Below are positions 10,922 to 62,965 of a DNA stretch of 64,000 nt, in pieces. The DNA is from Spirochaetales bacterium. GTDB lineage: Bacteria > Spirochaetota > Spirochaetia > JABMQR01. The first letter of the stretch is position 1, and the number at the start of each line of letters is the position of its first letter. The position numbers and the translations under genes are program-made. The stretch covers positions 58,032-122,031 of the forward strand of contig JAGYPA010000003.1 of assembly GCA_018399255.1 (NCBI GenBank). Reading direction: 5' to 3'. The notes beneath the pieces were generated by a model that saw only the letters and a program-made list of their open reading frames with translations, was not told the origin of the DNA and did no database searches.

Positions 10922-10983
10922 AGAGAGACCTCCTGAATAAAATTCCTGAATAAAGTGCAAATTTTGCTTTACACTCTCCCTGC

Positions 10984-11007
10984 ATATGATATAATGTTAT
11001 ATCATAT
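10984..11007. promoter_or_regulatory. Perfect 11-bp inverted repeat (ATATGATATAA-tg-TTATATCATAT) in the divergent promoter region
   Basis: Exact palindrome between the creatininase gene (-) and the NagB-like copy 1 (+). Confidence 0.4.
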
Positions 11008-11071
11008 TATAAGATAAAAATACAGCCTTTTTTCGGCTGGAGCCTGAAATTCATGGAGGGAGATACATACT

Positions 11072-12030
11072 ATGAATGGTTTTGACTTTTCACCGGCGCC
11101 CTGGATTCCTTTTCGCGACAAGGCGGTTCTGGATCGGGTACGAAAGCTTTCGGGGGAAGCGCTGACGCAGCATCCTAACAAGAACTTCCGGATTCAGATC
11201 AGCAAAAATCCCGGGCTTTTTTCTTTGCCCATCTTTTCAGCAAGATCCAGGAATCCGACCGGGAGAACAAGCCGTTTGTCGCCATCCTCGGCAATCCCGC
11301 CCCGGGAACCTACGAGCCCCTGGCAGACCTGATAAACTACGCGGGAGTAAACTGCCGCAACTTCTACCCTTTACCATGGACGAATGGGCCGATGAGAACG
11401 GAAACATAGCTCCGACAACCTACAAGGCGGGTTTTCCTACTCGTTTCTAAAATACCTGATTAACCGGATCCGGCCGGAGCTCCGGCCGCCGGAGAAGAAC
11501 GTCTTCTATCCCACAAACGAGAACATACAGGACTACTCGAAGCTGATAGCGAGAAGGGGAACGGCGGGGCCGATACCCTCTATTCCGGTCCTGGGTGGGC
11601 CGGTCATATTGCTTTATCGATCCGTGCCCGAGCTGATTCCCGATTACCGGGAAGGCGGGGAGTACCTGATCAAGGATCTGGACGATCCCTACTTTCAGCA
11701 GCTCGGCGCAGGTGCTGACGATCCATCCGCTGACAATTGTGCAGAATTCGCTGCACGGTGTTTTCGGACAGAGCGGGATCTTGCGCAGGTGCCGCCGAAA
11801 GCGGCGACCATCGGCCCGCTGGATGTGCTCAATGCGAAGGAACGGATCGAGACTCACTGGATAACGACAGGAGGCCAGTTCAGCATGGCGCCGGATGACC
11901 AGCCGGCTGATAACCCACGGGCCGGTAACTCCCTACATGCCGGGATCGATTCTGCAGCTGCTCGATACCACTGTGCTTATCAGTGAAAGCATTGCAGAAC
12001 CGATAGAGTGCATGGAGACCGTCGGCTACT
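11072..12030 (+). pseudogene. NagB-like (glucosamine-6-P deaminase / sugar-phosphate isomerase family) pseudogene, copy 1
   Basis: The N-terminus MNGFDFSPAPWIPFRDKAVLDRVRKL is a homolog of the intact paralog at 20436-21371. The reading frame breaks several times, with fragments in three frames (11072-11332, 11609-11986, and others). Confidence 0.7.
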
Positions 12031-12074
12031 GAGAAGTATGTATTGAACAGTATTAAACGAGGAGAGATGCTCTA

Positions 12075-13037
12075 TGAATGGTTTTGACTTTTCACCGGCG
12101 CCCTGGATTCCTTTTCGCGATAAGGCAGTTCTGGATCGGGTGCGGAAGCTTTCGGGGAAGCACTGACGCAGCACCCCAACAAGAACTTCCGGATTCAGAT
12201 CAGCAAAAACCCCGGCCTCTTTAAATTTGCCCACCTTTTCAGCAAGATCCAGGAATCCGACCGGGAGAACAAGCCGTTTGTCGCCATCCTCGGCAATCCC
12301 GCCCCGGGAACCTACGAGCCCCTGGCAGACCTGATTAACTACGCGGGAGTCAACTGCCGGAACTTCTATCCTTTTACCATGGACGAATGGGCCGATGAGA
12401 ACGGAACATAGCTCCGACAACCTACAAGGCGGGTTTTTCCTACTCTTTTCTCAAATACCTGATTAACCGGATCCGGCCTGAGCTCCGGCCTCCGGAGAAG
12501 AACGTCTTCTACCCCACAAACGAGAATATACAAGACTACTCGAAGCTGATTGCGGAAAAGGGAAACGGCGGGGCCGATACCCTCTATTCCGGTCCTGGGT
12601 GGGCTGGTCATATCGCCTTTATTGATCCGTGTCCCGAGCTGATTCCCGATTACCGGGAAGGCGGGGAGTACCTGATCAAGGATCTGGACGATCCCTTCTT
12701 TCAGCAGCCGGCGCAGGTGCTGACGATCCATCCGCTGACGATTGTGCAGAATTCGCTGCACGGAGTTTTCGGACAGAGCGGGGATCTGGCGCAGGTGCCG
12801 AAAGCGGCGACTATCGGCCCGCTGGATGTGCTCAATGCGAAGGAACGGATCGAGACTCACGGGATAACGACAGGAGGCCAGTTCAGCAGCTGGCAGCGGA
12901 TGACCAGCCGGCTGATAACCCACGGGCCGGTAACTCCCTACATGCCGGGATCGATTCTGCAGCTGCTCGATACCACTGTGCTTATCAGCGAAAGCATTGC
13001 AGAACCGATAGAGTGCATGGAGACCGTCGGCTACTGA
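12075..13037 (+). pseudogene. NagB-like pseudogene, copy 2 (tandem duplicate of copy 1)
   Basis: Near-identical N-terminus. A frameshift follows the SGE codons (ggggaagcactgacg versus gggggaagcgctgacg in copy 1). The C-terminal segment 12717-13037 is in frame with the paralog (TLAQNSLHGVFGQSGDLAQVP). Confidence 0.7.
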
Positions 13038-13090
13038 CCGTCGGCTGCTGAAAACTATATTTTTTGAATAGAAAGAAATGAGAAGAGGGT

Positions 13091-16873: not shown

Positions 16874-18283
16874 ATGGAGAAAAAAAGAATATCCGACAGC
16901 CAGGTGGATCAGGTCCGGGAAGGAACCGAGTATCTTCTGGAGAAAGTGGGCTTTACAGTTCAGCATGATGGGATCCTGAAAATAGCGAAAAATGCGGGTG
17001 CTGCCGTTGACGAAAGCAATTACCGGATACGATTACCCCGGAAGTTCCTGCGGGAACTGCTCGCTCAGGCTCCGAAGCAGTATGTCATAGCCGGTCTCGA
17101 CGGCCGTGAGCATGTCCGGGGAGGAACAAAGCGCGGGTTCTCTGCTATTGTAACCGATCCCTGGGTAATTGATTACAATACCGGGCAGCCCCGGAGACCG
17201 AACCTGGAAGATGTGCGCAAGCATACCATTATCGGACAGAAGCTCGAGCGGGTGGTGCAGATGAGCAGAATGGATTTTCCGGTTACCGATACAGATGATG
17301 CATCCTCAAGTCTTCGTGCTCTTGAAACTCACTTGCTTCATCAGAACAAGCACATCATGTTCATGCCGGCTTCCCTCGAAAGCTATCACGATTTCAAGAC
17401 CATTGCCCGGATTCTTGCCGGCGGACGGGATCCGGGGAAGAGCCATATTCTGAGCGTTGCAGCAGCCGTTGTAAGCCCTTTTGTTGTCGGAAACTGGAAT
17501 GCGGAAATGCTCATTGATGCCTGTGAAAGCGGCTTTCTGATCAATACCACGATCTGTCCTATGGCCGGCACAACGGCACCGTACAGTAAAGCGGCTGTTC
17601 TTTTGCAAGGCAATGCGGAGAACATTTTTATGACAGCCTTGACACAGATGATCAAACCCGGCACACCGATTGCCTACGGGTTTGGAGCGTCTGTTACCGA
17701 TATGCGGGCAGGGCATGACAGGTACTATATGCTCGATACTGCTCTCTGGACCGATGCGATCTGGCGTATGGCTGCTTCCTATAAGCTTCCTACCTCAGCA
17801 GCGTGCGGGGGAGGGATGACGTTTCGTTATGATCCCCAGAATGGAGCGGAAGGAATGGCCTTTATGCAGGCAGCTTGCGCAACCGGTGCTGACCTGCTTT
17901 CCGGGATCGGTTCTTACTATAACGCCGTCGGTATGTCAGCAGAGATGATGCTTATGCAGAATGCGTGGTTTGAAGCAGTTGAGCATCTGAACAGAGGAAT
18001 TGAGTTTGACAGTTTCAGTCAGGCTCTGGAAAGTCTCGAGGCTGCAGGACCTGGCGGAAATTTCCTCACCGATGATCTTACCATAGAAAACCTGCGGAGC
18101 AGCGAGTTTTTTAACCATGACCTTTTTGATTTTTCGGGCGGAAATTATCAGGGTACGTCGATGCTGCAGAGAGCTCACGAAAAAATAGACGAAATGACGG
18201 AGGGGTTCGAGTCTCCGCTTCCCGGATCGGTGCAGGAAGAGCTGCGAAGGCATTTTCATCACCTCTATCAGAGTTTGAACTGA
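16874..18283 (+). CDS. MttB-superfamily methyltransferase (non-pyrrolysine member of the trimethylamine methyltransferase family, MtgB-like)
   Basis: N-terminal pattern EGTEYLLEKVGFTVQHDGILKIAKNAGAAVDESNYRIRLPRKFLRELLAQAPKQYVIAGLDG matches the MttB-family N-terminus. It is about 470 aa with no internal amber codon. GAGGAGG lies upstream. Confidence 0.6.
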   Translation: MEKKRISDSQVDQVREGTEYLLEKVGFTVQHDGILKIAKNAGAAVDESNYRIRLPRKFLRELLAQAPKQYVIAGLDGREHVRGGTKRGFSAIVTDPWVIDYNTGQPRRPNLEDVRKHTIIGQKLERVVQMSRMDFPVTDTDDASSSLRALETHLLHQNKHIMFMPASLESYHDFKTIARILAGGRDPGKSHILSVAAAVVSPFVVGNWNAEMLIDACESGFLINTTICPMAGTTAPYSKAAVLLQGNAENIFMTALTQMIKPGTPIAYGFGASVTDMRAGHDRYYMLDTALWTDAIWRMAASYKLPTSAACGGGMTFRYDPQNGAEGMAFMQAACATGADLLSGIGSYYNAVGMSAEMMLMQNAWFEAVEHLNRGIEFDSFSQALESLEAAGPGGNFLTDDLTIENLRSSEFFNHDLFDFSGGNYQGTSMLQRAHEKIDEMTEGFESPLPGSVQEELRRHFHHLYQSLN

Positions 18284-18383
18284 TGAGGCAGATCTTGCTT
18301 GACAATGGGAAAGAGGTAACGTAAAATTAAATGGTTATAATATTCTTATATTATAATTTTTCTTTATAATAGAAGGAGTTGAC

Positions 18384-19370
18384 ATGCTGCCGAAATTTAC
18401 TGAGTTTGATAAAAAAATCTGGGAAAAGGAACTGGAAGACTTTGTCCCAGAATCTGTGTTTGATGCGCACAGCCACATCTGGTCCGAAGCTTTCAGGAAG
18501 AACAATACCCAGAACACCTCTGCCTTACGGCTGGAGGTAGCTCTCGAGGACCTTCACCGCTGGTCACTTACACTGTTTCCCGGACGGAATATGGGGTACA
18601 TTCCCTTGCCGACTCCGCTGAAGGATATAGATTATTCCGGTCATAATGACTGGACTGCAGCGGAAGCGCACAGCGCGAAGTCTGCCGGGATTCCCCTTCC
18701 GGTTATTCCCACTATGCTGGTAGTCCCTGGGATGGACAAAGAGGAGATCAGCCTGCGGGCAGAGCGGGACGGAGTGAAAGTGCTCAAACCCTATCGGGTA
18801 TACGCAGACGATCCAAAAAACGGGGTGATTACCGACTTCTTTCCAGAATCCTTTATGGAAGCAGCCGATGAGCATCATCTGGCAGTAACGCTTCATCTTT
18901 CCAAAGAGACGGGTCCGGCTGATGAGCAGAACCTGAAGGATCTTGAACGATTCACTCGAAAGTACCCCGGTATTCGCTGGATTCTCGCCCATTGTGCCCG
19001 GGCTTTCAATTCGGTTCACCTTGAGGATTCCGTGCATCGTCTCGCAAAGATGGAGAATGTGTTTGTGGATACTTCTGCCGTGAATGACACCTACTCCCAC
19101 TATCTGCTTTTCAAATACTTCGATCGGGAAAAAATCCTCTTCGGAACGGACAACGTATCTGCGGGTTCAGCCCGCGGGAAATATATCACCTTCGGTTACG
19201 GCTGGGAAGGCTATTTCGGCAAGGAATCTCTTGAGCACTGCGACAGCCGCTGTACATTCATCGTGTATGAGCAGCTGCGGTGTCAGAAGCAGGCGGCTGA
19301 AATGGTCGGTCTTACGAAAGGTGAAATCGAGGATCTGTTTTATCGGAACAGCCTGAAGTTTTTTTCCTGA
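18384..19370 (+). CDS. Amidohydrolase-2 family (TIM-barrel metal-dependent hydrolase)
   Basis: DAHSHIW N-terminal metal-binding motif typical of amidohydrolase-2, and a HCARAF region. Confidence 0.6.
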   Translation: MLPKFTEFDKKIWEKELEDFVPESVFDAHSHIWSEAFRKNNTQNTSALRLEVALEDLHRWSLTLFPGRNMGYIPLPTPLKDIDYSGHNDWTAAEAHSAKSAGIPLPVIPTMLVVPGMDKEEISLRAERDGVKVLKPYRVYADDPKNGVITDFFPESFMEAADEHHLAVTLHLSKETGPADEQNLKDLERFTRKYPGIRWILAHCARAFNSVHLEDSVHRLAKMENVFVDTSAVNDTYSHYLLFKYFDREKILFGTDNVSAGSARGKYITFGYGWEGYFGKESLEHCDSRCTFIVYEQLRCQKQAAEMVGLTKGEIEDLFYRNSLKFFS

Positions 19371-19430
19371 TAAGCAAACAGCTTTCAGAAAGCTTGAAAA
19401 GGGCATGCCGATGCTGATGCATGAAAAAGG

Positions 19431-20390
19431 ATGGAAAAATTGTCTGTAACAGAAAGCAATAGTCGGAGTATATCCCGGCTCGGGCTGGGAACCGTTCAGT
19501 TCGGGCTGAATTACGGTATAAACAATACCGGAGGGCAGGTTTCGTATCAGGAAGTCTGCAGCATTCTAGAGACAGCAGCAGAAGAAGGCATCAACTTTCT
19601 CGATACATCGCGAAATTACGGAACCAGTGAGACAGTTCTGGGAAAAGCGATGAAGGAAACGGGGACAGACACCCGCTTTACCGTCTCAACGAAGCTCGAT
19701 CTGGACCGGAATTTCAAGGAGCTGAGCGATAAGCAGCTCTCCAAAGCTGCAGAAGAGTCGCTGGAAAAGAGCCTTGAAGCATTGAAGCTCGAGCAGATAC
19801 CGCTTTACCTTCTTCACAGCTATGATTATTACAGCTATCGGGACAATCTGATCTGGCATACTGCCCGGGAGCAGCAGGAAAAGGGCCGTATCGGAAAGCT
19901 TGGCATTTCCATAGGGCAGGGCCCGCATGAAGCCCTCTCCGCCCTCGGGGATACCGAGGTGCAGGCTCTCCAGATACCCTATAACCTGTTCGATCAGCGC
20001 TGGCGGCAGTCCGGTTTTCTTGCTGCGGCAAATAAAGCCGACCTGATTCTGATATCCCGCAGCGCCTATCTGCAGGGACTGCTGCTGATGGATATCGAGA
20101 AGGCTGTTCAGCGGGTGCCGCTCTCTCGGCCCTATAAAGAGATTCTCAATAATCTTGCGAAGACGTGGGATTTGAGCCTGACGGAACTTGTTTTCCGGTA
20201 TGTGATGGATACCAGAGAGATAACAACGACCATTGTAGGGATTGACAGTCTTCAGCAGCTTAAGGAAAATTGCAGGCTGTATAAGCGTCCAGCCCTGAAT
20301 AAAGCCAGGATACGGGAAATTGAAGAGCTCTTCAGCGAAGTTCCTGTCGAGGTGGTAAATCCATCATTCTGGACAACTGTTTTCAAATAA
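19431..20390 (+). CDS. Aldo/keto reductase
   Basis: LGLGTVQFG, DTSRNYG and SETVLGKA aldo/keto reductase motifs. Confidence 0.8.
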   Translation: MEKLSVTESNSRSISRLGLGTVQFGLNYGINNTGGQVSYQEVCSILETAAEEGINFLDTSRNYGTSETVLGKAMKETGTDTRFTVSTKLDLDRNFKELSDKQLSKAAEESLEKSLEALKLEQIPLYLLHSYDYYSYRDNLIWHTAREQQEKGRIGKLGISIGQGPHEALSALGDTEVQALQIPYNLFDQRWRQSGFLAAANKADLILISRSAYLQGLLLMDIEKAVQRVPLSRPYKEILNNLAKTWDLSLTELVFRYVMDTREITTTIVGIDSLQQLKENCRLYKRPALNKARIREIEELFSEVPVEVVNPSFWTTVFK

Positions 20391-20435
20391 CCAGTGATTT
20401 AAAAGTTTCGGGATAAGATAAAAGGAGACGGCAGA

Positions 20436-21371
20436 ATGAATGAATTTACCTTTAAACCCTCTCAATGGGTTCCGTTCAAGGATAGGGAAGTCATTGAGAG
20501 GGTCAGAAAAATCAGGCGCGAAGATATCGATAAGCATAACAATCCTGATTTCCGCATCAGGGTGCTCCCCCGGGAGAAAATATCTCATATCTTTGTAACC
20601 GATGTTTTTTCACGGATAAAACGTTCAGATGATCACGATGAGCCGGTAGTGCTTCTTTTCCCCAATCCCAATCCCGACTACTGGAAGGTTGCGCACCTGA
20701 TAAACACGCTGCAGGTCAGCTGCAGGAATGTCTGGGCTTTTGCGCTGGATGAATACGCAGACGAAGAGGGCAATATTGCCCCTGCCGAATGGAAATTCGG
20801 GTTCATGCGGGCTATGAATGAGAATTTTTACAACGCCATCGATGTGCACCTCCGTCCGCCGCGGGAGCAGGTTATCGGGCCGACCAACGAAAACTACAGG
20901 GACTACAGTAAGATGATTGCCGATCTGGGGGGAGCTGATGCCTGCTACACGGGCCCCGGCTGGACCGGCCACCTGGCTTTTGTCGAGCCGGACGCACCCG
21001 AGTTTAAAGCCGAAAGTCTGGAAGAATGGATGGGTATGGGAGCCCGGATAGTCACCTTGAGTCCGTTTACCCTCGCCCAGAATTCACTTTACGGAGGATT
21101 CGGCATGAGCGGGGATTTGAGTGCCGTTCCACCCAAAGGCTTTACGATAGGTCCGCGGGATGTTGTCGAGGCGAAATACCGGATGGATATGAGCGCCATA
21201 ACCGTTCATGGAACTGCCACCAGCTGGCAGCGTCTCATGGCCCGACTGGTTCTGCACGGACCGGTAACCCCGCTGCTGCCGACATCCATCCACCAGCTCT
21301 TGAGAACAGACAGCTATATATCGGAAGAAAATGCGATGAATATCGAGCCTGATTGGGACAAGGGGTATTAA
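20436..21371 (+). CDS. NagB-like glucosamine-6-phosphate deaminase / sugar-phosphate isomerase family protein (intact paralog of the pseudogenes)
   Basis: ALDEYADEEG and GPGWTGHLAFVEPD (compare the GIGxxGHIAFNEP motif of NagB/Pgl). GGAG ribosome-binding site. Confidence 0.6.
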   Translation: MNEFTFKPSQWVPFKDREVIERVRKIRREDIDKHNNPDFRIRVLPREKISHIFVTDVFSRIKRSDDHDEPVVLLFPNPNPDYWKVAHLINTLQVSCRNVWAFALDEYADEEGNIAPAEWKFGFMRAMNENFYNAIDVHLRPPREQVIGPTNENYRDYSKMIADLGGADACYTGPGWTGHLAFVEPDAPEFKAESLEEWMGMGARIVTLSPFTLAQNSLYGGFGMSGDLSAVPPKGFTIGPRDVVEAKYRMDMSAITVHGTATSWQRLMARLVLHGPVTPLLPTSIHQLLRTDSYISEENAMNIEPDWDKGY

Positions 21372-21372
21372 C

Positions 21373-22479
21373 ATGACGCCGAGGGAGAGAGTTGAAGCAG
21401 TCTATGCCGGTGAAGTGCCGGACCAGGTCCCCTTGCTGCTCGATCTCAGTCACTACTATAAAAGCACCTATAAAAAATTCTTCGATCTTTCCGGGTACAA
21501 AGGCGTGGACCAGGAACTGGTGGATCTGCACAAGAAAATCGGGGCCGTCTGCTATGTGGAGATGGGCCGGTTTTACGATCTGGCAGTAACCGACAGGCGT
21601 ATTGAAACGAGAGCGGAAACCCGGGACGGTGTTTTTTTTACCTATATCAGCACCCCGGAGGGCAGTCTCCATGAGGAGAGGACCTTCAGTGCAGAGAGTT
21701 ATTCCTACAACATCCGTAAGCATCTGCTGGAGAGCGTCGAAGATTTCCCGGCAGTTATCAGTCTGATGGAGCATATGGAGTGCATACCACGGTGGGAGCG
21801 GTATCATGAGTGGAACGACGCCCTTGGGGACGTGGGCTATCCCTACTGCGGTCTGCCCTACTCGGGGCTGGGGTATCTTATCTCACGCAATTTCGGGGTG
21901 GAAAAGACGATCTTTGCTGCCATGGATTATCCTGATGAGGTGCGGCTGCTTGTGGATTCAGTAAACCGTCGGAACCTGGAGATTCTCGATACCATAATCG
22001 ACGGCCCTTTTTCAACCCTTTTTATCAGCGACAACTATGACAGCAATGTGCAGACGAAAGAGCTGTTTGATACCTACTCGCGGGGATATTATACCGAGGT
22101 GGCAGATCGGCTGCATGCAAAGGGGAAGTATCTGGCAGTCCATGTGGATGGGGAGATGCGGGGAGCGCTGCGCTGGATGGATGAGTGCGGAGTGGACTGT
22201 GTCGATGCGGCTACCCCGGCGCCCATGTTCGCGCTGACTCCGAAAGCTGCCCGGGCGGAGGCGGGGAAGAATATGATCCTTTCCGGGGGTATACCGGCGA
22301 CAGTATTCGGTTCTCAGGGAACCGATGCAGAGTTTGAGGAGTCGGTGAAGGCCTGGCTGGAAACCAGGGTTGAATCTCCCCGGCTGTTTATGGCTGCAGG
22401 AGATCAGGTTCCTACCGATGCACCGCTGCACAGAATTGAGATGCTGCCAAAGCTCGTGGAAGCCTGCGGGAAATATTGA
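21373..22479 (+). CDS. URO-D family protein (second MtaA/CmuA-like paralog)
   Basis: N-terminus TPRERVEAVYAGEVPDQVPL. Translationally coupled to the upstream gene with a 1-nt gap. Confidence 0.55.
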   Translation: MTPRERVEAVYAGEVPDQVPLLLDLSHYYKSTYKKFFDLSGYKGVDQELVDLHKKIGAVCYVEMGRFYDLAVTDRRIETRAETRDGVFFTYISTPEGSLHEERTFSAESYSYNIRKHLLESVEDFPAVISLMEHMECIPRWERYHEWNDALGDVGYPYCGLPYSGLGYLISRNFGVEKTIFAAMDYPDEVRLLVDSVNRRNLEILDTIIDGPFSTLFISDNYDSNVQTKELFDTYSRGYYTEVADRLHAKGKYLAVHVDGEMRGALRWMDECGVDCVDAATPAPMFALTPKAARAEAGKNMILSGGIPATVFGSQGTDAEFEESVKAWLETRVESPRLFMAAGDQVPTDAPLHRIEMLPKLVEACGKY

Positions 22480-22501
22480 ACCGAACGGGGAAGATTCAGC
22501 T

Positions 22502-23662
22502 ATGAAAGTTATTGTAAACTGCCGGATTATTACCGAGAAGCAGATTATTCCGGATGCTGTGCTTATTATTGACGGCAGACTTATCCGGGAATTCGGACCT
22601 GCTGAGCTTCTTGCCCCGCGTCTTTCAGAGCTTGCAGACTGCGAAGTACTAGATGCCGGAGGAGACTTTCTCGGACCTGGCTTCATTGATCTTCATTGTC
22701 ACGGAGGCGGCGGGGTATGGTGGCATGAGGAACCCGAAGTTTTTGCCGAAACCCATTTGCGGCACGGCAGTACCGGCCTGCTGGCGACCTCCGGTATGTA
22801 TAAGGATTTGGATGAGCTCTGCCGCGGGCTCGATCGTATCCGTGAAGGTATGCAAAGCGGCAGCTGTCCCAATATTCTCGGTGTGCAGATGGAGGGGCCT
22901 TATAAAAACCCGAAATACGGCGCCCAGCCGGAACTTTCCATTCGCATTAATGAATTAGAGTATCGAAAAATCCTTGAGCATGGAAGTGATATCATCAAAA
23001 TCTGGACAGTTGCTCCTGAGCTTGAGGGAATTGATCCGTTTATTGAGACCGTCAGCGCCCTGGGGCATATTCTTTCCATAGGCCATTCGGAAGCTTCCCC
23101 TGAGGAGATTCTCAAAAACCTCAGTAACCGGCTTATTCTCGCCTGTCACGCTTTCGATGCAACCGGAACCAGTCCGAAGCTGAAAGGCGAAGCGGGAACC
23201 CGCAGCGTCAGTGTGGATGATATGGTACTTCTTGAGGACCGAATATATGCCGAGGTGATTCCCGATGCAGCCGGCGTTCATGTCCGCCCGCAGCTTCTGC
23301 AGCTTATTCTGAAAGCGAAAGGGGTGGATAAGGTTGTTGTAATAACCGATGGAACAACTGGCTCCGGCATAAAAGGGGTGCTCCCCGGAGAATCGGATCT
23401 CAATTTCAATGAAAACGGCCTATGCGGTTCGAATCTGACTATGGATCGGGCAGCCAGGAATATGATGATGCATACCGGTGCCTCACTGCCGGAAATTTTT
23501 TTGATGGCTTCACTTAACCCCGCCCGTGTGCTGAATGTCGATCATGCATACGGCAGCATCAGGCCATGGAAGATTGCCAATCTGGTGCTGGTCGATTCTG
23601 CACTGAATCTGAAAAAAGTAATTTTTCAAGGTGAAGTGATTCAGGATTCTCCAGGAATGTAA
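22502..23662 (+). CDS. NagA-like amidohydrolase (second paralog)
   Basis: GFIDLHCHGGGG motif. The start moves to MKVIVNCRII. The ORF track extends the frame upstream into the preceding gene. Confidence 0.65.
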   Translation: MKVIVNCRIITEKQIIPDAVLIIDGRLIREFGPAELLAPRLSELADCEVLDAGGDFLGPGFIDLHCHGGGGVWWHEEPEVFAETHLRHGSTGLLATSGMYKDLDELCRGLDRIREGMQSGSCPNILGVQMEGPYKNPKYGAQPELSIRINELEYRKILEHGSDIIKIWTVAPELEGIDPFIETVSALGHILSIGHSEASPEEILKNLSNRLILACHAFDATGTSPKLKGEAGTRSVSVDDMVLLEDRIYAEVIPDAAGVHVRPQLLQLILKAKGVDKVVVITDGTTGSGIKGVLPGESDLNFNENGLCGSNLTMDRAARNMMMHTGASLPEIFLMASLNPARVLNVDHAYGSIRPWKIANLVLVDSALNLKKVIFQGEVIQDSPGM

Positions 23663-39187: not shown

Positions 39188-39814
39188 CTAGTTCGTTTCA
39201 GCTCGCTTCAGCTCAATTCCAATAAGGAAAATCTCGAAGGAGTCCTTTCTGCAGGCTTTTGGCTTGAATGTCTTTACCCGGGCAAACAGATTCCTCATGG
39301 CTTTGACCACGTCCTGCTCACCGCCCCCCTGAAAAAGTTTAATTACCAGATTACCGCCCGGATGCAGCAATTGAGGGACCAGAGAAATAATTGATTCTGC
39401 CAGTCCCTGGGAACGCAGACAGTCAACAGATCGGTTTCCGGTGGTTGACGGAGCCGCATCACTGATCACGGCATGATACGGACCGTGACTGGATATCTGG
39501 TCCATTTGTTCCGGAGCGAATGCATCGCCGGTTAGAACCGTTACCTGGGCGGGGAGAGGATCGAGTATCAGCGGCTTTAAATCAACAGCGACAATGCGTC
39601 CTTGTCCCTTCAAAAGCTTACGATGCACATAGAGTGTCCAGCTTCCCGGAGCTGCGCCAATGTCGAGAACCGTGTTTCCGGGTTTAATTATCTGGAATTT
39701 CTGCTGAATTTCTTCCAACTTGTAGACAGAACGGGCAGGGTATCCCTCTTTTTTTGCCTTTAAAGAATAATAATCAAGCTGAGATCGTGAATTACCGCCC
39801 TTCTTGCCTGCCAT
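39188..39814 (-). CDS. rlmE: 23S rRNA (uridine-2'-O)-methyltransferase RlmE (FtsJ)
   Basis: RSVYKLEEIQQKFQIIKPGNTVLDIGAAPGSW FtsJ SAM-binding motif. The start moves to MAGKKGG. The ORF track extends 53 codons upstream. Confidence 0.8.
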   Translation of the reverse strand: MAGKKGGNSRSQLDYYSLKAKKEGYPARSVYKLEEIQQKFQIIKPGNTVLDIGAAPGSWTLYVHRKLLKGQGRIVAVDLKPLILDPLPAQVTVLTGDAFAPEQMDQISSHGPYHAVISDAAPSTTGNRSVDCLRSQGLAESIISLVPQLLHPGGNLVIKLFQGGGEQDVVKAMRNLFARVKTFKPKACRKDSFEIFLIGIELKRAETN

Positions 39815-40217
39815 TTCCGCAGTATAGCATAAAAAGCAGTCAGAGAACATATAGGGGGGATAATCAGTAGTATAGTATAGCTGAATAAAGACAGCGGCCG
39901 AACAGTAACACTGCCGGCCGCCGGGATAAGAAATAAGAAATAAGGAAACATAGAAACCGGAAGCCAGGATCAACGATCCAGCTTTCAGTTATAGGGGGAA
40001 GTATGAAAACCCCTGACTGCTTTGATACTATAAAAGCAAAGATCGTGCCAACTATTTTGCGAAAATAAAAAAAGTGCCAATCTGTCTCAATAGCGATTCT
40101 ATGCTGAAAGAAAGCCGGGTAACAGGCTCCTTTACGCTTTATTACAATCCAAGGCAGGTAAATTGCCGTGTGAAAAATATTCCATTTGCCCGATAGTGAT
40201 AAAAATATTCACACCTT

Positions 40218-40272
40218 GTGAATAAAACTTGTGAATAAAGGTGGATAAAGCTTGTGGATAACTTGTGGATAA
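40218..40272 (+). promoter_or_regulatory. Cluster of five DnaA-box-like 9-mers, all in the same orientation
   Basis: TGTGAATAA (40218-40226), TGTGAATAA (40230-40238), GGTGGATAA (40240-40248), TGTGGATAA (40253-40261) and TGTGGATAA (40264-40272). These equal the reverse complement of the TTATCCACA consensus. AT-rich sequence flanks the cluster. Confidence 0.55.
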
Positions 40273-40321
40273 CTCAAAATTATATTATTGACACAACGAG
40301 TTCAATAAGTATTCTTTTGAT

Positions 40322-41359
40322 ATGATTACACGATTGGAACGAATTGAGAGCTATCTGAAGGTAATCCTGCCGTTGTATCCTGACCGCAGCTGGGTGGACA
40401 GGATAGCAGGAGAGGAGATTGAAGACCCCGATCTGGAGCAGTATCAGGCATTCTGCCAACCAGCCTCAGATCTGGTAAACCGGGGAGGAAAGCGTTGGCG
40501 GCCGCTCCTTATGGTGTTGACAGCCGAGGCGGCTGGAGGACCGGAAGCGGCAGAGAGAGCATACCCCCTTACAGCAGTGGTTGAATTTCCCCATAACGGA
40601 AGCCTGATTATTGATGATATTGAAGACAGTTCAGAATGGCGCCGCGGAGAGAAGGCTGTCCACACTATCTATGGAACCGATATTTCCATCAATGCCGGGA
40701 ACCTGCTCTATTTTCTGCCGACCGTATCTATCGATTCGGCAGCCCTTGCCAATGAACAGAAACTTGCAGTCTACCAGATTTATTCCCGTTATATGAGAAG
40801 AGTACATCTGGGACAGGGGCTCGATATCCACTGGCACCGGAACCCTGAAATTTTTCCGCAGGTCGGGGAGTATCTTCAGATGTGCCGTTTCAAGACAGGG
40901 TGTCTGGCCGGCATGAGTGCGGAAATAGGAGCAGCGGCAGCAGGGTGGAAACCCGAAAGAACCAGGATATGGGGCCGGACAGCAGAGAAAATCGGGGTCG
41001 GGTTTCAAATACGCGACGATGTGGAAAACCTTCACACGGGAAATCCGGGAAAACGTCACGGGGATGATATTGTCGAAGGGAAAAAGAGCCTGCCGGTAAT
41101 TCTCCATCTCCGGGAGTGTCCGGAAGATATTTTCCGGATGACTGAATTGTTTGCCGAGGCGGCCAGAAAAGGGGTCGACGGTGCAAAAGATGAAATTGAT
41201 GAGGCGGTAGCGATGATAGCCGGTTCAAGCGCCCTGGATAAAGCCGAAGCTATGGGTGAGAAGCTGCTTCATGAGGCCTTGGAAGAGGTTTCCGAGATAT
41301 TCGAACCCTCTCCAGCACGCGACCAGCTGACCAGTCTGGTGGAAAAGTTTATTCGCTGA
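40322..41359 (+). CDS. Polyprenyl (trans-isoprenyl) diphosphate synthase
   Basis: First aspartate-rich motif LIIDDIED and second FQIRDD. Confidence 0.8.
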   Translation: MITRLERIESYLKVILPLYPDRSWVDRIAGEEIEDPDLEQYQAFCQPASDLVNRGGKRWRPLLMVLTAEAAGGPEAAERAYPLTAVVEFPHNGSLIIDDIEDSSEWRRGEKAVHTIYGTDISINAGNLLYFLPTVSIDSAALANEQKLAVYQIYSRYMRRVHLGQGLDIHWHRNPEIFPQVGEYLQMCRFKTGCLAGMSAEIGAAAAGWKPERTRIWGRTAEKIGVGFQIRDDVENLHTGNPGKRHGDDIVEGKKSLPVILHLRECPEDIFRMTELFAEAARKGVDGAKDEIDEAVAMIAGSSALDKAEAMGEKLLHEALEEVSEIFEPSPARDQLTSLVEKFIR

Positions 41360-41365
41360 TTTTTC

Positions 41366-42073
41366 GTGTCAGACACTTATTTGTTCTGCCTCCCAATATT
41401 GACTACTGCCGATGAAATTTGTATGTTTGTTGGGATGGAAAAAAAATTATTGCACAAGCAGTTTACCTATACCTTCTCTAACGTAACCCTGAAGCTGATT
41501 ATTATCAATGTTGTGGTGTTTTTTCTTACATCAGCAAGTAGGGATATTCTCATTTACGGTTCACTTATACCCGCACTGATAATACGGGACCACTATTACT
41601 GGCAATTTTTTACCTATATGTTCTTTCACTCCAATATTACCCATCTGCTGTTCAACATGCTCGGGCTGTTTTTCTTCGGTTCTCAGGTGGAAAAACGGAT
41701 TGGAAGCCGGGAGTTTCTGCTTTTTTATCTGCTTATAGGTACCTTGGCAGGGGTATTCTCCTATTTTGTCTACATATGGAGCGGGAATTACGTCGTTATT
41801 CTTCTCGGTGCGTCAGGGGCAGTATATGGGGTACTGCTGGCTTTTGCCGTCTTTTTCCCTTTTGCCCGGATTTTTGTCTTTGGAGTTCTTCCGGTACAGG
41901 CCCCGGTTCTCGTTGTCGTGTATACCATCATCGAGATTTTCAGTCAGATGACAGGAGCGAGCTCGGGGGTTGCCCATCTTACCCACCTTGCAGGTTTCGC
42001 ATTTGCCTATCTCTATATACTGATCAGGATGCAGATCAACCCTATCGATGTCTGGCGGCGAACCCGCAGATAA
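41366..42073 (+). CDS. Rhomboid-family intramembrane serine protease
   Basis: GASGAVYGVL (GxSG) and a downstream AHLTHLAGF histidine, with a 6-TM layout. The true start may be the internal Met at about 41423-41435. Confidence 0.7.
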   Translation: MSDTYLFCLPILTTADEICMFVGMEKKLLHKQFTYTFSNVTLKLIIINVVVFFLTSASRDILIYGSLIPALIIRDHYYWQFFTYMFFHSNITHLLFNMLGLFFFGSQVEKRIGSREFLLFYLLIGTLAGVFSYFVYIWSGNYVVILLGASGAVYGVLLAFAVFFPFARIFVFGVLPVQAPVLVVVYTIIEIFSQMTGASSGVAHLTHLAGFAFAYLYILIRMQINPIDVWRRTRR

Positions 42074-43304: not shown

Positions 43305-44519
43305 TTGATCAAGGAGCTGCATGTGGACCTTCGTCCCTTTACCGATGCTGACATACCCCTGCTGACCGGATGGATGGGAACTGCCACTGCCGTAGAAACC
43401 ATGACCTGGGCAGGTTCCTGCTTTAAGGCACCTCTTGATGAAGTCCAGCTGAAGAGCTTCCTGAAAAAGCTGGAAGATGCCGGGACTGCGAGATTTTATG
43501 TCATAGAAACAGCCCTGGAAGGCTCAATCGAGGAAGAAAGCGGGCAGCCGCTTCGGATCCCGGTTGGCATAATATCCCTGGGAAGAATCGATCGGGTCAA
43601 TAACTCAGCCCGGGTCGGTTTCGTGCTCATCGGAGAAAAGGCGTTTCGCGGTAAAGGACTGGGCGGTTTGGCCGTTGCAGAGGTGCTCAGGATAGGTTTT
43701 GATGAGGAGCAGCTCCATAAAATAACTCTGGGAGTATTTGACTATAATATTCCAGCCCTCCGGTGCTATACGGGCTTGGGATTCCAGCGTGAAGGGATGC
43801 TGCGTGATCAGGTGCAGCTTGACGGTACCTATTATAATCTTATTGAAATGAGCATTCTGGAGCATGAATGGCGAAAGGGTGAATCGGTTCCCGCACATTA
43901 CCGGGAAACCGGGCGTCTGATTCTCAGAACTTTTACCGAGGCTGATGTTCCCCTTGCCCTCGGTTTCTATCGGGATAATCATGATTTTTTTGCCCCCTGG
44001 AGTCCTGTCCGGGGAGTGGGAGATGTGGGTGAAGATTTTCTCACTCCCGAGGCCCAGCGCAACTATATACAGCAGTCATTGGATATGGAGCGGACCGGTT
44101 CCGGCCTCCGGCTCTGGTTAATCAGAAAAAAGGCTGCATCGGCAAGTCGAGAAACGGTAGTCGGGAATATAAGCTTGTCCCAGATTGTTCGCGGGCCCTT
44201 TCAGTCGGCTTTTCTCGGGTACCAGCTTGATCATCGATTTACCGGGAAGGGGATGGCGCAGGAGGCTGTCCGGGAACTCCTCAAGATTGGCTTTAATGAA
44301 ATGGGTCTGCACCGGATCGAAGCCAACATCATGCCTGCCAACACACCTTCCCGGACGCTCGCCCGCCGGCTGGGTTTCAGGGAAGAGGGATATGCCCGCG
44401 GATATCTGGCAATTGCCGGTAAATGGGAAGATCATATTCATTATGTTATGCTGGCTGAAGAATACCGTGAAAGGTATTCCGGCACCAACGGACGGGAATC
44501 ATCGAGACTTTGCAGATAA
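43305..44519 (+). CDS. Tandem-GNAT N-acetyltransferase
   Basis: Two GNAT-like cores, with AFRGKGLGGLAV and FTGKGMAQEAV motifs. Confidence 0.7.
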   Translation: MIKELHVDLRPFTDADIPLLTGWMGTATAVETMTWAGSCFKAPLDEVQLKSFLKKLEDAGTARFYVIETALEGSIEEESGQPLRIPVGIISLGRIDRVNNSARVGFVLIGEKAFRGKGLGGLAVAEVLRIGFDEEQLHKITLGVFDYNIPALRCYTGLGFQREGMLRDQVQLDGTYYNLIEMSILEHEWRKGESVPAHYRETGRLILRTFTEADVPLALGFYRDNHDFFAPWSPVRGVGDVGEDFLTPEAQRNYIQQSLDMERTGSGLRLWLIRKKAASASRETVVGNISLSQIVRGPFQSAFLGYQLDHRFTGKGMAQEAVRELLKIGFNEMGLHRIEANIMPANTPSRTLARRLGFREEGYARGYLAIAGKWEDHIHYVMLAEEYRERYSGTNGRESSRLCR

Positions 44520-45322
44520 CGGGCCCGGTAGTGGCTCGGTGCATGTCCGGTATACTGCTTGAAAACCCGGCTGAAATGGAACTCACTGTAAAAGCAGAGG
44601 CGGGCGGCAATCTCCTTTACCGATAGATTAGTGCTGGCAAGCATAGCGCCGGCGGCTTCCACCTTGAGACGGGTGTAGTATTTCATGGGTGAGGTTTTCA
44701 TCCGGCGCTGGAACAGACGAATGAAATAGGATTCCGTCAGTTCCAGCCGGGAAGCAATGTCTGAAAGAGTAATACTTCCAATAACGTTTTTCTGCATGAA
44801 GCGGAGAGCTTTCTCTAAGTGCACACTCTCCTCTCTGCTGTAGGATGACATCTCCCCTTCGCTCAGCTGGTAGAGAAAAGAGATCAGCTGATGAACGGCA
44901 GAACGGCGCAGGTTTTCATTTTTAGATAACCCTTTTTCCCGGATTTCTTCGAAAAAGAATCGATAGTTGGTTCCGATATTGCTGCACGATGCCTTGTGGA
45001 TATCCTGATGCAGCAGTTCCGTCATTTGCTGCTCATGAGAATCGACCGAGAAGAGAACTGCATAATACGTTATGGGGTTGATGCTGTCACTGGCGCGGAT
45101 GGCATGGAACGTTTCCGGCGATGTGATGAACAGAGTTCCGGGAATGATAGTGCAGAGATCGCTTCCGTTCTGGAACTGTCCGGTACCCTGCAGAAAATAG
45201 TGCAGCTCATATTCTGCTGTACCGTGCTGATGGTATCTTCCGTGCCAACGGATCTCGTCATCATCCTGCATCTGGTAGACAAAAACCGCATCCTCTATAT
45301 TCATTATGTCAATTATATGCAT
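44441..45322 (-). CDS. AraC-family transcriptional regulator (cupin sensor plus HTH), likely xylose-operon regulator
   Basis: C-terminal AraC HTH (LSDIASRLELTESYFIRLFQRRMKTSPMKYYTRLKVEAAGAML). It is divergent from xylB. Confidence 0.75.
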   Translation of the reverse strand: MHIIDIMNIEDAVFVYQMQDDDEIRWHGRYHQHGTAEYELHYFLQGTGQFQNGSDLCTIIPGTLFITSPETFHAIRASDSINPITYYAVLFSVDSHEQQMTELLHQDIHKASCSNIGTNYRFFFEEIREKGLSKNENLRRSAVHQLISFLYQLSEGEMSSYSREESVHLEKALRFMQKNVIGSITLSDIASRLELTESYFIRLFQRRMKTSPMKYYTRLKVEAAGAMLASTNLSVKEIAARLCFYSEFHFSRVFKQYTGHAPSHYRARYLQSLDDSRPLVPEYLSRYSSASIT

Positions 45323-62222: not shown

Positions 62223-62965
62223 GAAAAAATGAGGATGCAGCATCTGTGCCGGTTAAAGATCGGGTGCTCTACAAGGATAATCATATTATTGCGGTAGCTA
62301 AGCTCCCCTCGGAGATTGTTCAGAGCGATATAAGCGGGGATCCGACGCTTGCTGATGCGGTTAAGGAGTTTATCAGAGCCAGCTGTGGAAAACCGGGAAA
62401 TGTCTTTCTCGGAATTCCTCACCGGCTGGACCGTCCGACGAGCGGGGTTGTCCTTTTTGCCCGAACCGGGAAGGCGCTTGCCCGTCTTGCCGCCATGTTC
62501 CGGGATCGGGAAATCCGTAAGTTCTATTGGGCTGTTGTGGATAAGCCGCCGCCGGAGACCGAAGGGCGTCTTGAACACTACCTGATTCGGGATCGTACGA
62601 AAAATAAATCGTTTGCAGTACCCTCCGATAAAAAGGGAGCAAAGAAGGCTCTTCTTACCTATCGTCTGGAACGAGCGACGAAATCGTATTATATGCTGGA
62701 GATTGAGCTTGAAACAGGCCGTCATCATCAAATTCGGGCTCAGTTTGCTGCGCTGAATATACATATCAAAGGTGACCTGAAGTACGGGGCGGCACGTTCC
62801 AATCCGGGCGGTGGAATCTGTCTGCATGCCCGGCAGGTTGAGTTTGTTCATCCGGTTACCGGGAAGCCGGTTGTTATAACGGCTCCGTTTCCCGAAGAAC
62901 AGATCTGGCAGTCAGCAGAGCCTGAGCAGCCTGAGCCTGAGCAGCCTGAGCCTGAGTCGGTATAA
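62219..62965 (+). CDS. RluA-family pseudouridine synthase
   Basis: HRLDRPTSGVVLFART catalytic-Asp motif. The C-terminal tail is EPEQPEPEQPEPES. Confidence 0.8.
   Translation: MRKNEDAASVPVKDRVLYKDNHIIAVAKLPSEIVQSDISGDPTLADAVKEFIRASCGKPGNVFLGIPHRLDRPTSGVVLFARTGKALARLAAMFRDREIRKFYWAVVDKPPPETEGRLEHYLIRDRTKNKSFAVPSDKKGAKKALLTYRLERATKSYYMLEIELETGRHHQIRAQFAALNIHIKGDLKYGAARSNPGGGICLHARQVEFVHPVTGKPVVITAPFPEEQIWQSAEPEQPEPEQPEPESV

Follow-up and report, generated by a model that had tools for sequence, protein, structure and literature searches.

A compact tandem array of DnaA boxes abutting a polyprenyl diphosphate synthase promoter in a spirochete: a candidate extra-origin DnaA operator

Clusters of DnaA boxes outside the replication origin have been well studied in just E. 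coli, B. subtilis, Streptomyces and a few others, and to my knowledge almost nothing is known about such clusters in Spirochaetia other than Borrelia. The E. coli locus datA spans ~1 kb and carries an IHF site between its essential boxes that is needed to promote hydrolysis of ATP-DnaA, and the core of the DARS loci is made of three boxes, one of them opposed to the others, that are needed for the release of ADP. I know of no description in this phylum of the initiator-control systems Hda/datA/DARS, SeqA or YabA/Soj. In B. subtilis, high-affinity DnaA-box clusters of 4-12 sites lie outside oriC and several of them control neighbouring genes (PMC4447404); one case is sda, which DnaA activates from boxes in the sda promoter region (PMC4447404, PMC3245932). 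The DnaA of a spirochete, Borrelia, binds upstream of replication genes and has been proposed to regulate them (PMC9879097). Tandem boxes, for their part, are the commonest arrangement in origins (PMC8287927). This study concerns an array of five co-oriented DnaA boxes in a 64,000-nucleotide stretch of a Spirochaetales bacterium genome (contig JAGYPA010000003.1, positions 58,032 to 122,031, hereafter the window), where it sits in the 507-bp intergenic region between two divergent genes, rlmE and a polyprenyl diphosphate synthase gene.

The array is best explained as an extra-origin DnaA operator array of the B. subtilis cluster type that would control the synthase gene and the rhomboid protease gene behind it, with some titration of DnaA as a side effect, a reading to which I give a probability of roughly 55%. 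Two traits of the B. subtilis clusters were found here, namely several near-consensus boxes in an intergenic region and their placement at the promoter of a neighbouring gene. For a further trait, stable DnaA binding with an effect on expression or initiation, the purifying selection in the 9-bp register (below) is the one indirect sign. With a promoter immediately downstream of it, the array suggests DnaA in the role of a transcription factor, or a cluster of the Bacillus type.

A pattern search placed the five 9-mers at 40217-40272 of the window, within 56 bp:

40217 to 40225, minus strand: DnaA box 1, TTATTCACA (TGTGAATAA on the plus strand), an exact TTATNCACA; centre at -101 from the ATG at 40322
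40230 to 40238, minus strand: DnaA box 2, TTATTCACA; centre at -88
40240 to 40248, minus strand: DnaA box 3, TTATCCACC, one mismatch; centre at -78
40253 to 40261, minus strand: DnaA box 4, a perfect TTATCCACA; centre at -65
40264 to 40272, minus strand: DnaA box 5, a perfect TTATCCACA, promoter-proximal; centre at -54

Read in order on the plus strand, the array runs TGTGAATAA, TGTGAATAA, GGTGGATAA, TGTGGATAA, TGTGGATAA. On the minus strand, this amounts to two perfect TTATCCACA boxes and three boxes with one mismatch, and four of the five are exact by the usual TTATNCACA definition. Start-to-start distances of 13, 10, 13, and 11 bp leave gaps of just 1-4 bp between the boxes. Five sites within 60 bp is a density that 300 first-order Markov simulations of the window did not reach, the maximum being two, and the window as a whole held 29 sites with at most one mismatch to TTATCCACA, compared with 11.6 +/- 3.7 in shuffled sequence. 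An earlier note on this DNA had reported five co-oriented boxes between rlmE and the polyprenyl synthase gene, and the sequence, the pattern search and the simulations all bear this out. The AT-rich repeats that it described beside the boxes are real, though modest: a 15-nt direct repeat GTG(T/A)(G/T)AAAAATATTC occurs at 40168 and 40196, and the AT-rich repeat AAAATTATATTATT separates the last box from the -35 hexamer. The same array was found in 13 further independently assembled contigs (NCBI, JGI, Logan), which rules out an assembly artefact.

The array is also a tandem repeat with an 11-13 bp unit, CTTGTG[G/A]ATAA, and its boxes are therefore not independent events but copies that arose by duplication. 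The improbability lies in a DnaA box being the unit that was duplicated; by my arithmetic (2 x 28 / 4^9), the chance of an arbitrary 9-mer lying within one mismatch of TTATCCACA on either strand is ~2x10^-4.

Outside the array, the whole window held 24 sites with at most one mismatch to TTATCCACA, against ~11.6 expected. Nineteen of the 24 read TGTGGATAA-like on the plus strand, which is leading-strand-like by GC skew, and this excess may reflect G-richness or codon usage instead of function. The sole other perfect box in the window lies at 62536-62544, within a pseudouridine synthase gene.

The polyprenyl synthase belongs to a protein cluster of six members at 90% identity, and their contigs yielded five array haplotypes (loci of relatives carry L numbers):

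Window haplotype (window and L001): five boxes, namely two TTATTCACA, one TTATCCACC and two TTATCCACA
Tobar haplotype (L050-L052): TGTGAACAA in place of an intact box 1, a perfect box 2, and boxes 3-5 identical to those of the window
JGI haplotype (L046-L049 and L053-L055): boxes the same as in Tobar
L045 haplotype: boxes 4 and 5 damaged, reading TGCGTATAA plus 2 bp and TGCGGATAA
L056 haplotype: two boxes only, TGTGCATAA and TGTGGATAA, adjoining the promoter

The haplotypes can also be followed box by box. Box 1 is missing from L056 and survives elsewhere among the close haplotypes only in the decayed form TGTGAACAA, the window haplotype apart, and box 2 is a perfect TTATCCACA in Tobar, JGI, and L045, its sole change falling at the degenerate N position. 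Box 3 has the same sequence in all four haplotypes that have four to five boxes. Box 4 reads TGTGCATAA in L056 and is the box carrying TGCGTATAA plus 2 bp in L045, and box 5 is perfect in every close relative, L056 included, except L045. On this comparison, box 5 is the putative oldest box of the array. Exact matches to the consensus are present in two to three copies per haplotype, and where Tobar and JGI differ from one another, at four positions, the change is always in a spacer.

Variable sites were counted over the five full-length sequences (window, L050, L046, L055, and L048):

Box positions: 2 of 45 variable (0.04)
Spacers inside the array: 6 of 11 variable (0.55)
Synthase third codon positions: 99 of 345 variable (0.29)
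Synthase first codon positions: 18 of 345 variable (0.05)
Synthase second codon positions: 11 of 345 variable (0.03)
Loose intergenic DNA, 40060-40159: 32 of 100 variable (0.32)

Fisher tests of the boxes against each of the neutral proxies gave p = 2-3x10^-4, and one of the two box changes was a G/A exchange at the degenerate fifth (N) position of TTATNCACA. These counts point to purifying selection on the 9-bp units, with a footprint whose width and register are those of a DnaA box.

Relatives at 57-69% protein identity keep the layout of the intergenic region (rlmE is visible in L006, L007, and L023), and the collections searched held no relatives at 70-90% identity. By all appearances the array is young, having arisen recently through tandem duplication in one uncultured Spirochaetia lineage and now being kept by selection. 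A promoter-proximal pair likely came first, followed by expansion through duplication of CTTGTGGATAA and CTTGTGAATAAA units. Among relatives, ~6 to 75 bp separate the -35 hexamer from an older conserved motif (AAAAAT-N-T-N-CACAC, see below), and in L005 this interval carries an unrelated tandem repeat, TAGGTTGCTG x2. Since its length varies so, the array was built in a length-tolerant spacer.

Several points weigh against a DnaA operator under selection. Adding L045 to the counts raised the variable box sites to 5 of 45, with p = 0.004 against the spacers and p = 0.012 against third codon positions, and the haplotypes are few and closely related, so that site counts are not independent events. 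No DnaA box lies within 600 bp upstream of the synthase gene in the relatives at 57-69% identity; together with the damaged L045 and the two-box L056, these boxless distant relatives imply that any function is dispensable and lineage-specific. The DnaA box preference of this lineage is assumed, and in the DnaA of Borrelia two residues that contact bases are different, and that protein may favour other sequences (PMC9879097).

The promoter that the array abuts lies here:

40288 to 40315, plus strand: sigma-70-type promoter of the synthase gene, 10 of 12 consensus matches

It comprises the -35 hexamer TTGACA (40288-40293), a 16-nt spacer and the -10 hexamer TATTCT (40310-40315), followed by 6 nt to the ATG; AAAATTATATTA comes directly after box 5, and TTGACA follows it. 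All five box centres thus lie upstream of the -35/-10 pair. A TTGAC(A/T/C) ~35 nt before the ATG, together with a -10 element 5-7 nt before it, was present in most relatives examined, down to ~45% protein identity, and among close relatives just 1 of 49 promoter sites was variable. No Shine-Dalgarno sequence was found ahead of the synthase ATG. With the -10 element ending 6 nt before the ATG, the synthase messenger RNA is probably leaderless, its start, I infer, lying at or beside the A of the ATG.

The rlmE gene is laid out likewise, with an extended -10 element, TGCTATACT, on the minus strand (39821-39829) that ends 6 nt before its ATG (39814), and this leaderless-type layout is kept in the three distant relatives with a visible start (L006, L007, and L023). 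It seems that the messenger RNAs of rlmE and of the synthase gene are both leaderless.

The genes on the two sides of the array are as follows:

39188 to 39814, minus strand: rlmE, encoding an RlmE/FtsJ 23S rRNA methyltransferase (Pfam and NCBIfam scans)
40322 to 41359, plus strand: polyprenyl diphosphate synthase gene (Pfam PF00348, 2.7e-55)
41366 to 42073, plus strand: rhomboid-family intramembrane protease gene (Pfam PF01694, 2e-30), beginning 6 nt past the synthase stop

The synthase gene is the presumed regulated target of the array. Its product would be a geranylgeranyl- or longer-chain synthase, and as all NCBIfam matches stayed under their equivalog cut-offs, the chain length is not fixed by them. 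The order of synthase and rhomboid genes is common to all relatives, and the rhomboid gene is probably co-transcribed with the synthase gene.

If DnaA recognises these boxes as their sequence suggests, it would bind the two perfect promoter-proximal boxes with high affinity, and because the boxes stand head-to-tail and 10-13 bp apart, an ATP-dependent oligomer would spread cooperatively over boxes 3 to 1. Placed at -54 to -101, this oligomer would modulate RNA polymerase at the synthase-rhomboid promoter and would thereby couple polyprenyl diphosphate synthesis to the level of active initiator. As a by-product, five or more DnaA molecules would be held, a slight titration. Activation is somewhat more likely than repression, if weakly so, because the array takes an upstream, class-I-like position and sites upstream of a -35 more often activate.

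Between rlmE and the array lies a further element that has a bearing on who else may bind here:

40168 to 40214, no strand assigned: older conserved element, GTGTGAAAAATATT ... AAAAATATTCACAC, an inverted repeat that also holds the 15-nt direct repeat

Two 9-mers in it, TGTGAAAAA (40169-40177) and ATATTCACA (40205-40213), weakly resemble DnaA boxes, and its core, AAAAAT-N-T-N-CACAC, also occurs in relatives devoid of such boxes. Close relatives do not keep the TTAT part of ATATTCACA, the 9-mer in opposite orientation (AAATTCACA and AATTTCACA), and the element is hence not preserved as a DnaA box; its binding partner is probably another factor, possibly the activator of a sigma-54-type promoter ~150 bp away (described below).

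Among the systems described, the B. subtilis clusters of the yqeG-sda type come closest, as these are likewise groups of near-consensus intergenic boxes away from dnaA and oriC, placed at the promoter of a neighbour and between divergent genes, with 4-12 sites where the present array has five. The clusters by yydA (rlmH), trmE, gcp, and ywlC adjoin RNA-modification genes, like rlmE here. In contrast to them, the spirochete array comes from another phylum, is more compact (56 bp), strictly co-oriented, tandem-duplicated and apparently very young, and is a prediction from sequence. Like datA, the array has about five DnaA boxes outside oriC and could hold DnaA, but its boxes lie within 56 bp and abut a promoter, and the IHF consensus WATCAANNNNTTR had no match on either strand of 39815-40321, this consensus being that of E. 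coli, from which spirochete IHF/HU-like proteins may differ. The DARS1 and DARS2 loci of E. coli are also short intergenic DnaA-box clusters outside oriC, whereas here all five boxes are co-oriented and the lone opposed 9-mer, ATATTCACA, is not conserved as a box. The parallels with datA and DARS drawn in the earlier note consequently fail in detail, the array being too compact, devoid of an IHF-type site and wholly co-oriented. It shares with the low-affinity arrays of oriC and the basal unwinding system a head-to-tail order with ~10-13 bp between boxes, which would support a directional DnaA oligomer, and it lacks their canonical trio run, unwinding element, skew switch, origin-linked genes and conservation in relatives. 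In B. burgdorferi, DnaA upstream of dnaX-ebfC and other replication genes is a case of spirochete DnaA outside the origin with a proposed role in transcription control (PMC9879097), a role that for the present array is a prediction. In Borrelia, DnaA has single or non-canonical sites within a 5' untranslated region, whereas the present array consists of canonical boxes upstream of the -35 of a metabolic gene.

Four other accounts of the array were weighed, two of which place it in replication. That it serves as the chromosomal origin, or as an element of a displaced or secondary one, is hardly credible. The density and head-to-tail order of the boxes do resemble those of origin arrays, and a ~50-bp AT-rich stretch follows box 5, but this stretch is the conserved promoter. 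A GC-skew switch at the locus, which the earlier note had proposed looking for, was not seen in the 64-kb window: plus-strand GC skew was positive throughout and cumulative skew climbed steadily and monotonically across the site. At third codon positions, the use of which removes most of the coding-strand effect, plus-strand skew was +0.076 (plus-strand genes) and +0.139 (minus-strand genes) to the left of the site and +0.065 and +0.087, respectively, to its right, so that the plus strand is leading-strand-like on both sides; plus-strand open reading frames (ORFs) are also in the majority on either side. Pfam scans of 50 ORFs, which are nearly all long non-nested ORFs of the window, revealed no dnaA, dnaN, gidA, or parAB, in agreement with the gene context given in the earlier note. 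A tblastn search with E. coli DnaA gave no match in the window and no real match in the fetched loci, and no dnaA was present across the 64 kb or ~5 kb past the right end. On the side set by the orientation of the boxes, 5' of the TGTGGATAA array, there were not even two consecutive [C/T]TA trios of the DnaA-trio type, and no 30-bp window reached at least 80% AT. A rule used in database mining asks for three NAN trios no farther than 16 bp from a box (PMC8287927), and by my reading of the sequence this lax rule can be satisfied in the AT-rich flank; it has little discriminating power in AT-rich DNA. Moreover, boxes are missing in the 57-69% identity relatives, which have the same intergenic elements, and L056 has only two. 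A box cluster is thus the one feature of oriC found here, as against a skew switch, an unwinding element or trios, linkage to origin genes, and conservation in relatives. The origin reading was rejected on these grounds, and the finding says nothing on where the chromosome starts replicating. Where the earlier note had wavered between a secondary DnaA-binding regulatory site and a displaced origin element, the former stands as far as sequence reaches, given the selection in a 9-bp register and the change at the N position, and the latter falls. Rather unlikely, though the least so of the four, is that the array is a DnaA-box cluster that mainly controls replication initiation and not the neighbouring gene. 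It draws on the same box and selection evidence as the operator, and B. subtilis offers a precedent in its clusters of 4-12 boxes, which jointly restrain initiation, the deletion of all six leading to over-initiation (PMC3245932, PMC4447404). The effective clusters there are, however, mostly oriC-proximal (PMC3245932), and here no dnaA is in reach. Five sites make a small sink, the array has no IHF-type site and is too compact for the loop geometry of datA, its placement against a conserved promoter is easier to understand as transcriptional control, and quick gain and loss among close relatives would be unexpected for a core element of replication control. Head-to-tail spacing of 10-13 bp, which in the low-affinity arrays of E. 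coli oriC favours oligomers, remains in its favour.

The other two accounts dispense with DnaA. The repeats could be the operator of another protein that binds direct repeats, for instance a response regulator of the OmpR/PhoB type, with the match to the DnaA box a coincidence, which I consider quite improbable. Direct repeats with a period of ~10-11 bp just upstream of a -35 are typical of winged-helix response regulators, and as a single unit was duplicated, one coincidence would suffice. The TTCACAC motif of the older element is more ancient than the array and makes up a palindrome together with box 1 (ATATTCACA-CCT-TGTGAATAA), and the DnaA of Borrelia may not use the canonical box (PMC9879097). 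Set against this are the two to three exact copies of the 9-bp consensus in each haplotype, at an a priori chance of ~2x10^-4, a conserved footprint that is 9 bp wide and varies at the N position of the DnaA box, and an irregular spacing of 13, 10, 13, and 11 bp that suits strictly phased response-regulator dimers poorly. Ten ORFs between 33.8 and 46.9 kb were scanned and none has a response-regulator domain, the nearest regulator being of the AraC type (44441-45322); a cognate regulator, often encoded close by, may lie farther off. Readings as CRP-like sites (TGTGA-N6-TCACA), Fur-like sites (GATAAT hexamers) or iterons were rejected on spacing and arrangement, and there is no rep gene nearby. 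A still smaller chance, and a slim one, falls to the array being a functionless by-product of replication slippage in a hypervariable spacer. The motif-to--35 segment does vary from ~6 to 75 bp among relatives, with an unrelated repeat in L005, box number differs among close relatives and boxes of L045 are damaged. Slippage would nevertheless leave unexplained why the amplified unit is the DnaA consensus, and the boxes (0.04) are about as constrained as first and second codon positions (0.03-0.05), in contrast to the free spacers (0.55). A DnaA operator at the synthase-rhomboid promoter accounts for these observations best.

The remainder of the intergenic region carries features of its own. 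A strongly conserved sigma-54-type promoter, TGGCACGATCTTTGCT, runs from 40050 to 40035 on the minus strand, and relatives as distant as 57% identity still have its GG/GC dinucleotides. An invariant stretch, AAAGCAGTCAGGG-TTTCATAC(C/T)TCC, comes next and includes a CCUCC/CUUCCC motif resembling an anti-Shine-Dalgarno sequence; farther along the same strand, from 39925 to 39884, lies a GC-rich terminator hairpin and its U-tail. The minus strand of 39884-40050 looks like a sigma-54-dependent small RNA (sRNA) of ~140 nt. This putative sRNA matched no Rfam family and is conserved down to the 57% relatives, with 7% of sites variable among close relatives against 29% at third codon positions. Consensus folding yielded a poor alignment and no compensatory pairs. 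The older conserved element lies ~130-180 bp upstream of the sigma-54 promoter and is a candidate site for an enhancer-binding protein acting on that promoter. A perfect 11-nt inverted repeat, AAAGCAGTCAG / CTGACTGCTTT, has its arms at 39833-39843 and 40013-40023, 169 nt apart, one just upstream of the rlmE promoter and the other where the putative sRNA has its 5' end. Close relatives retain the repeat, those of the JGI haplotypes with a single G/A change, but L023 and L007 do not, and it could be due to chance. Also inside the putative sRNA, 39926-39944 is a 7-bp tandem repeat, ATAAGAA, of 2.7 copies, of which the window and L001 have one copy more than all other close relatives. A structured RNA or transfer RNA at the site of the array was rejected, as neither Rfam (gathering threshold over the whole window, permissive E-value over 39800-40330) nor ARAGORN returned anything relevant. 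None of the small ORFs across the array (20-26 aa) is conserved in frame, and a 21-aa ORF at 40003-40068 shifts frame among relatives and is hence not coding.

The wider window holds ordinary metabolic and housekeeping genes in the Pfam scans of its 50 ORFs, among them carAB, a trp operon, topoisomerase IV, htpG, and transporters. Two other stretches were noticed. At 10960-13055, ~2 kb of relatively GC-rich DNA (0.53-0.55) lacks any ORF above 185 aa and holds a chain of minus-strand ORFs in differing frames (11447-11857, 11980-12420, and 12366-12923), which may be a frameshifted or decayed gene. At 16874-23662, an MttB-family (trimethylamine methyltransferase-like) gene occurs together with URO-D/MtaA-like, amidohydrolase, and aldo-keto reductase genes, possibly as a cluster for demethylating methylamines or quaternary amines in a lake spirochete; the closest relatives are uncultured Spirochaetia of saline or stratified lakes and similar sites.

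A more far-reaching idea, to which I lend little weight, is that the array is a newly evolved and still expanding DnaA-ATP-sensing site, either a compact, IHF-independent sink or inactivation site, or a switch tying synthesis of the polyprenyl lipid carrier, and with it envelope growth, to initiation. If that were true, the two-, four-, and five-box haplotypes would record the birth of such a site by tandem duplication. For the operator at the synthase-rhomboid promoter, the locus offers a clean, testable example in which compact, head-to-tail canonical boxes abut a conserved and probably leaderless promoter, and the natural variants, with two, four, and five boxes and one with damaged boxes, form a ready-made mutational series. 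Binding by DnaA, if true, would extend canonical box recognition to free-living Spirochaetia and would show a DnaA-regulated promoter born through tandem duplication.

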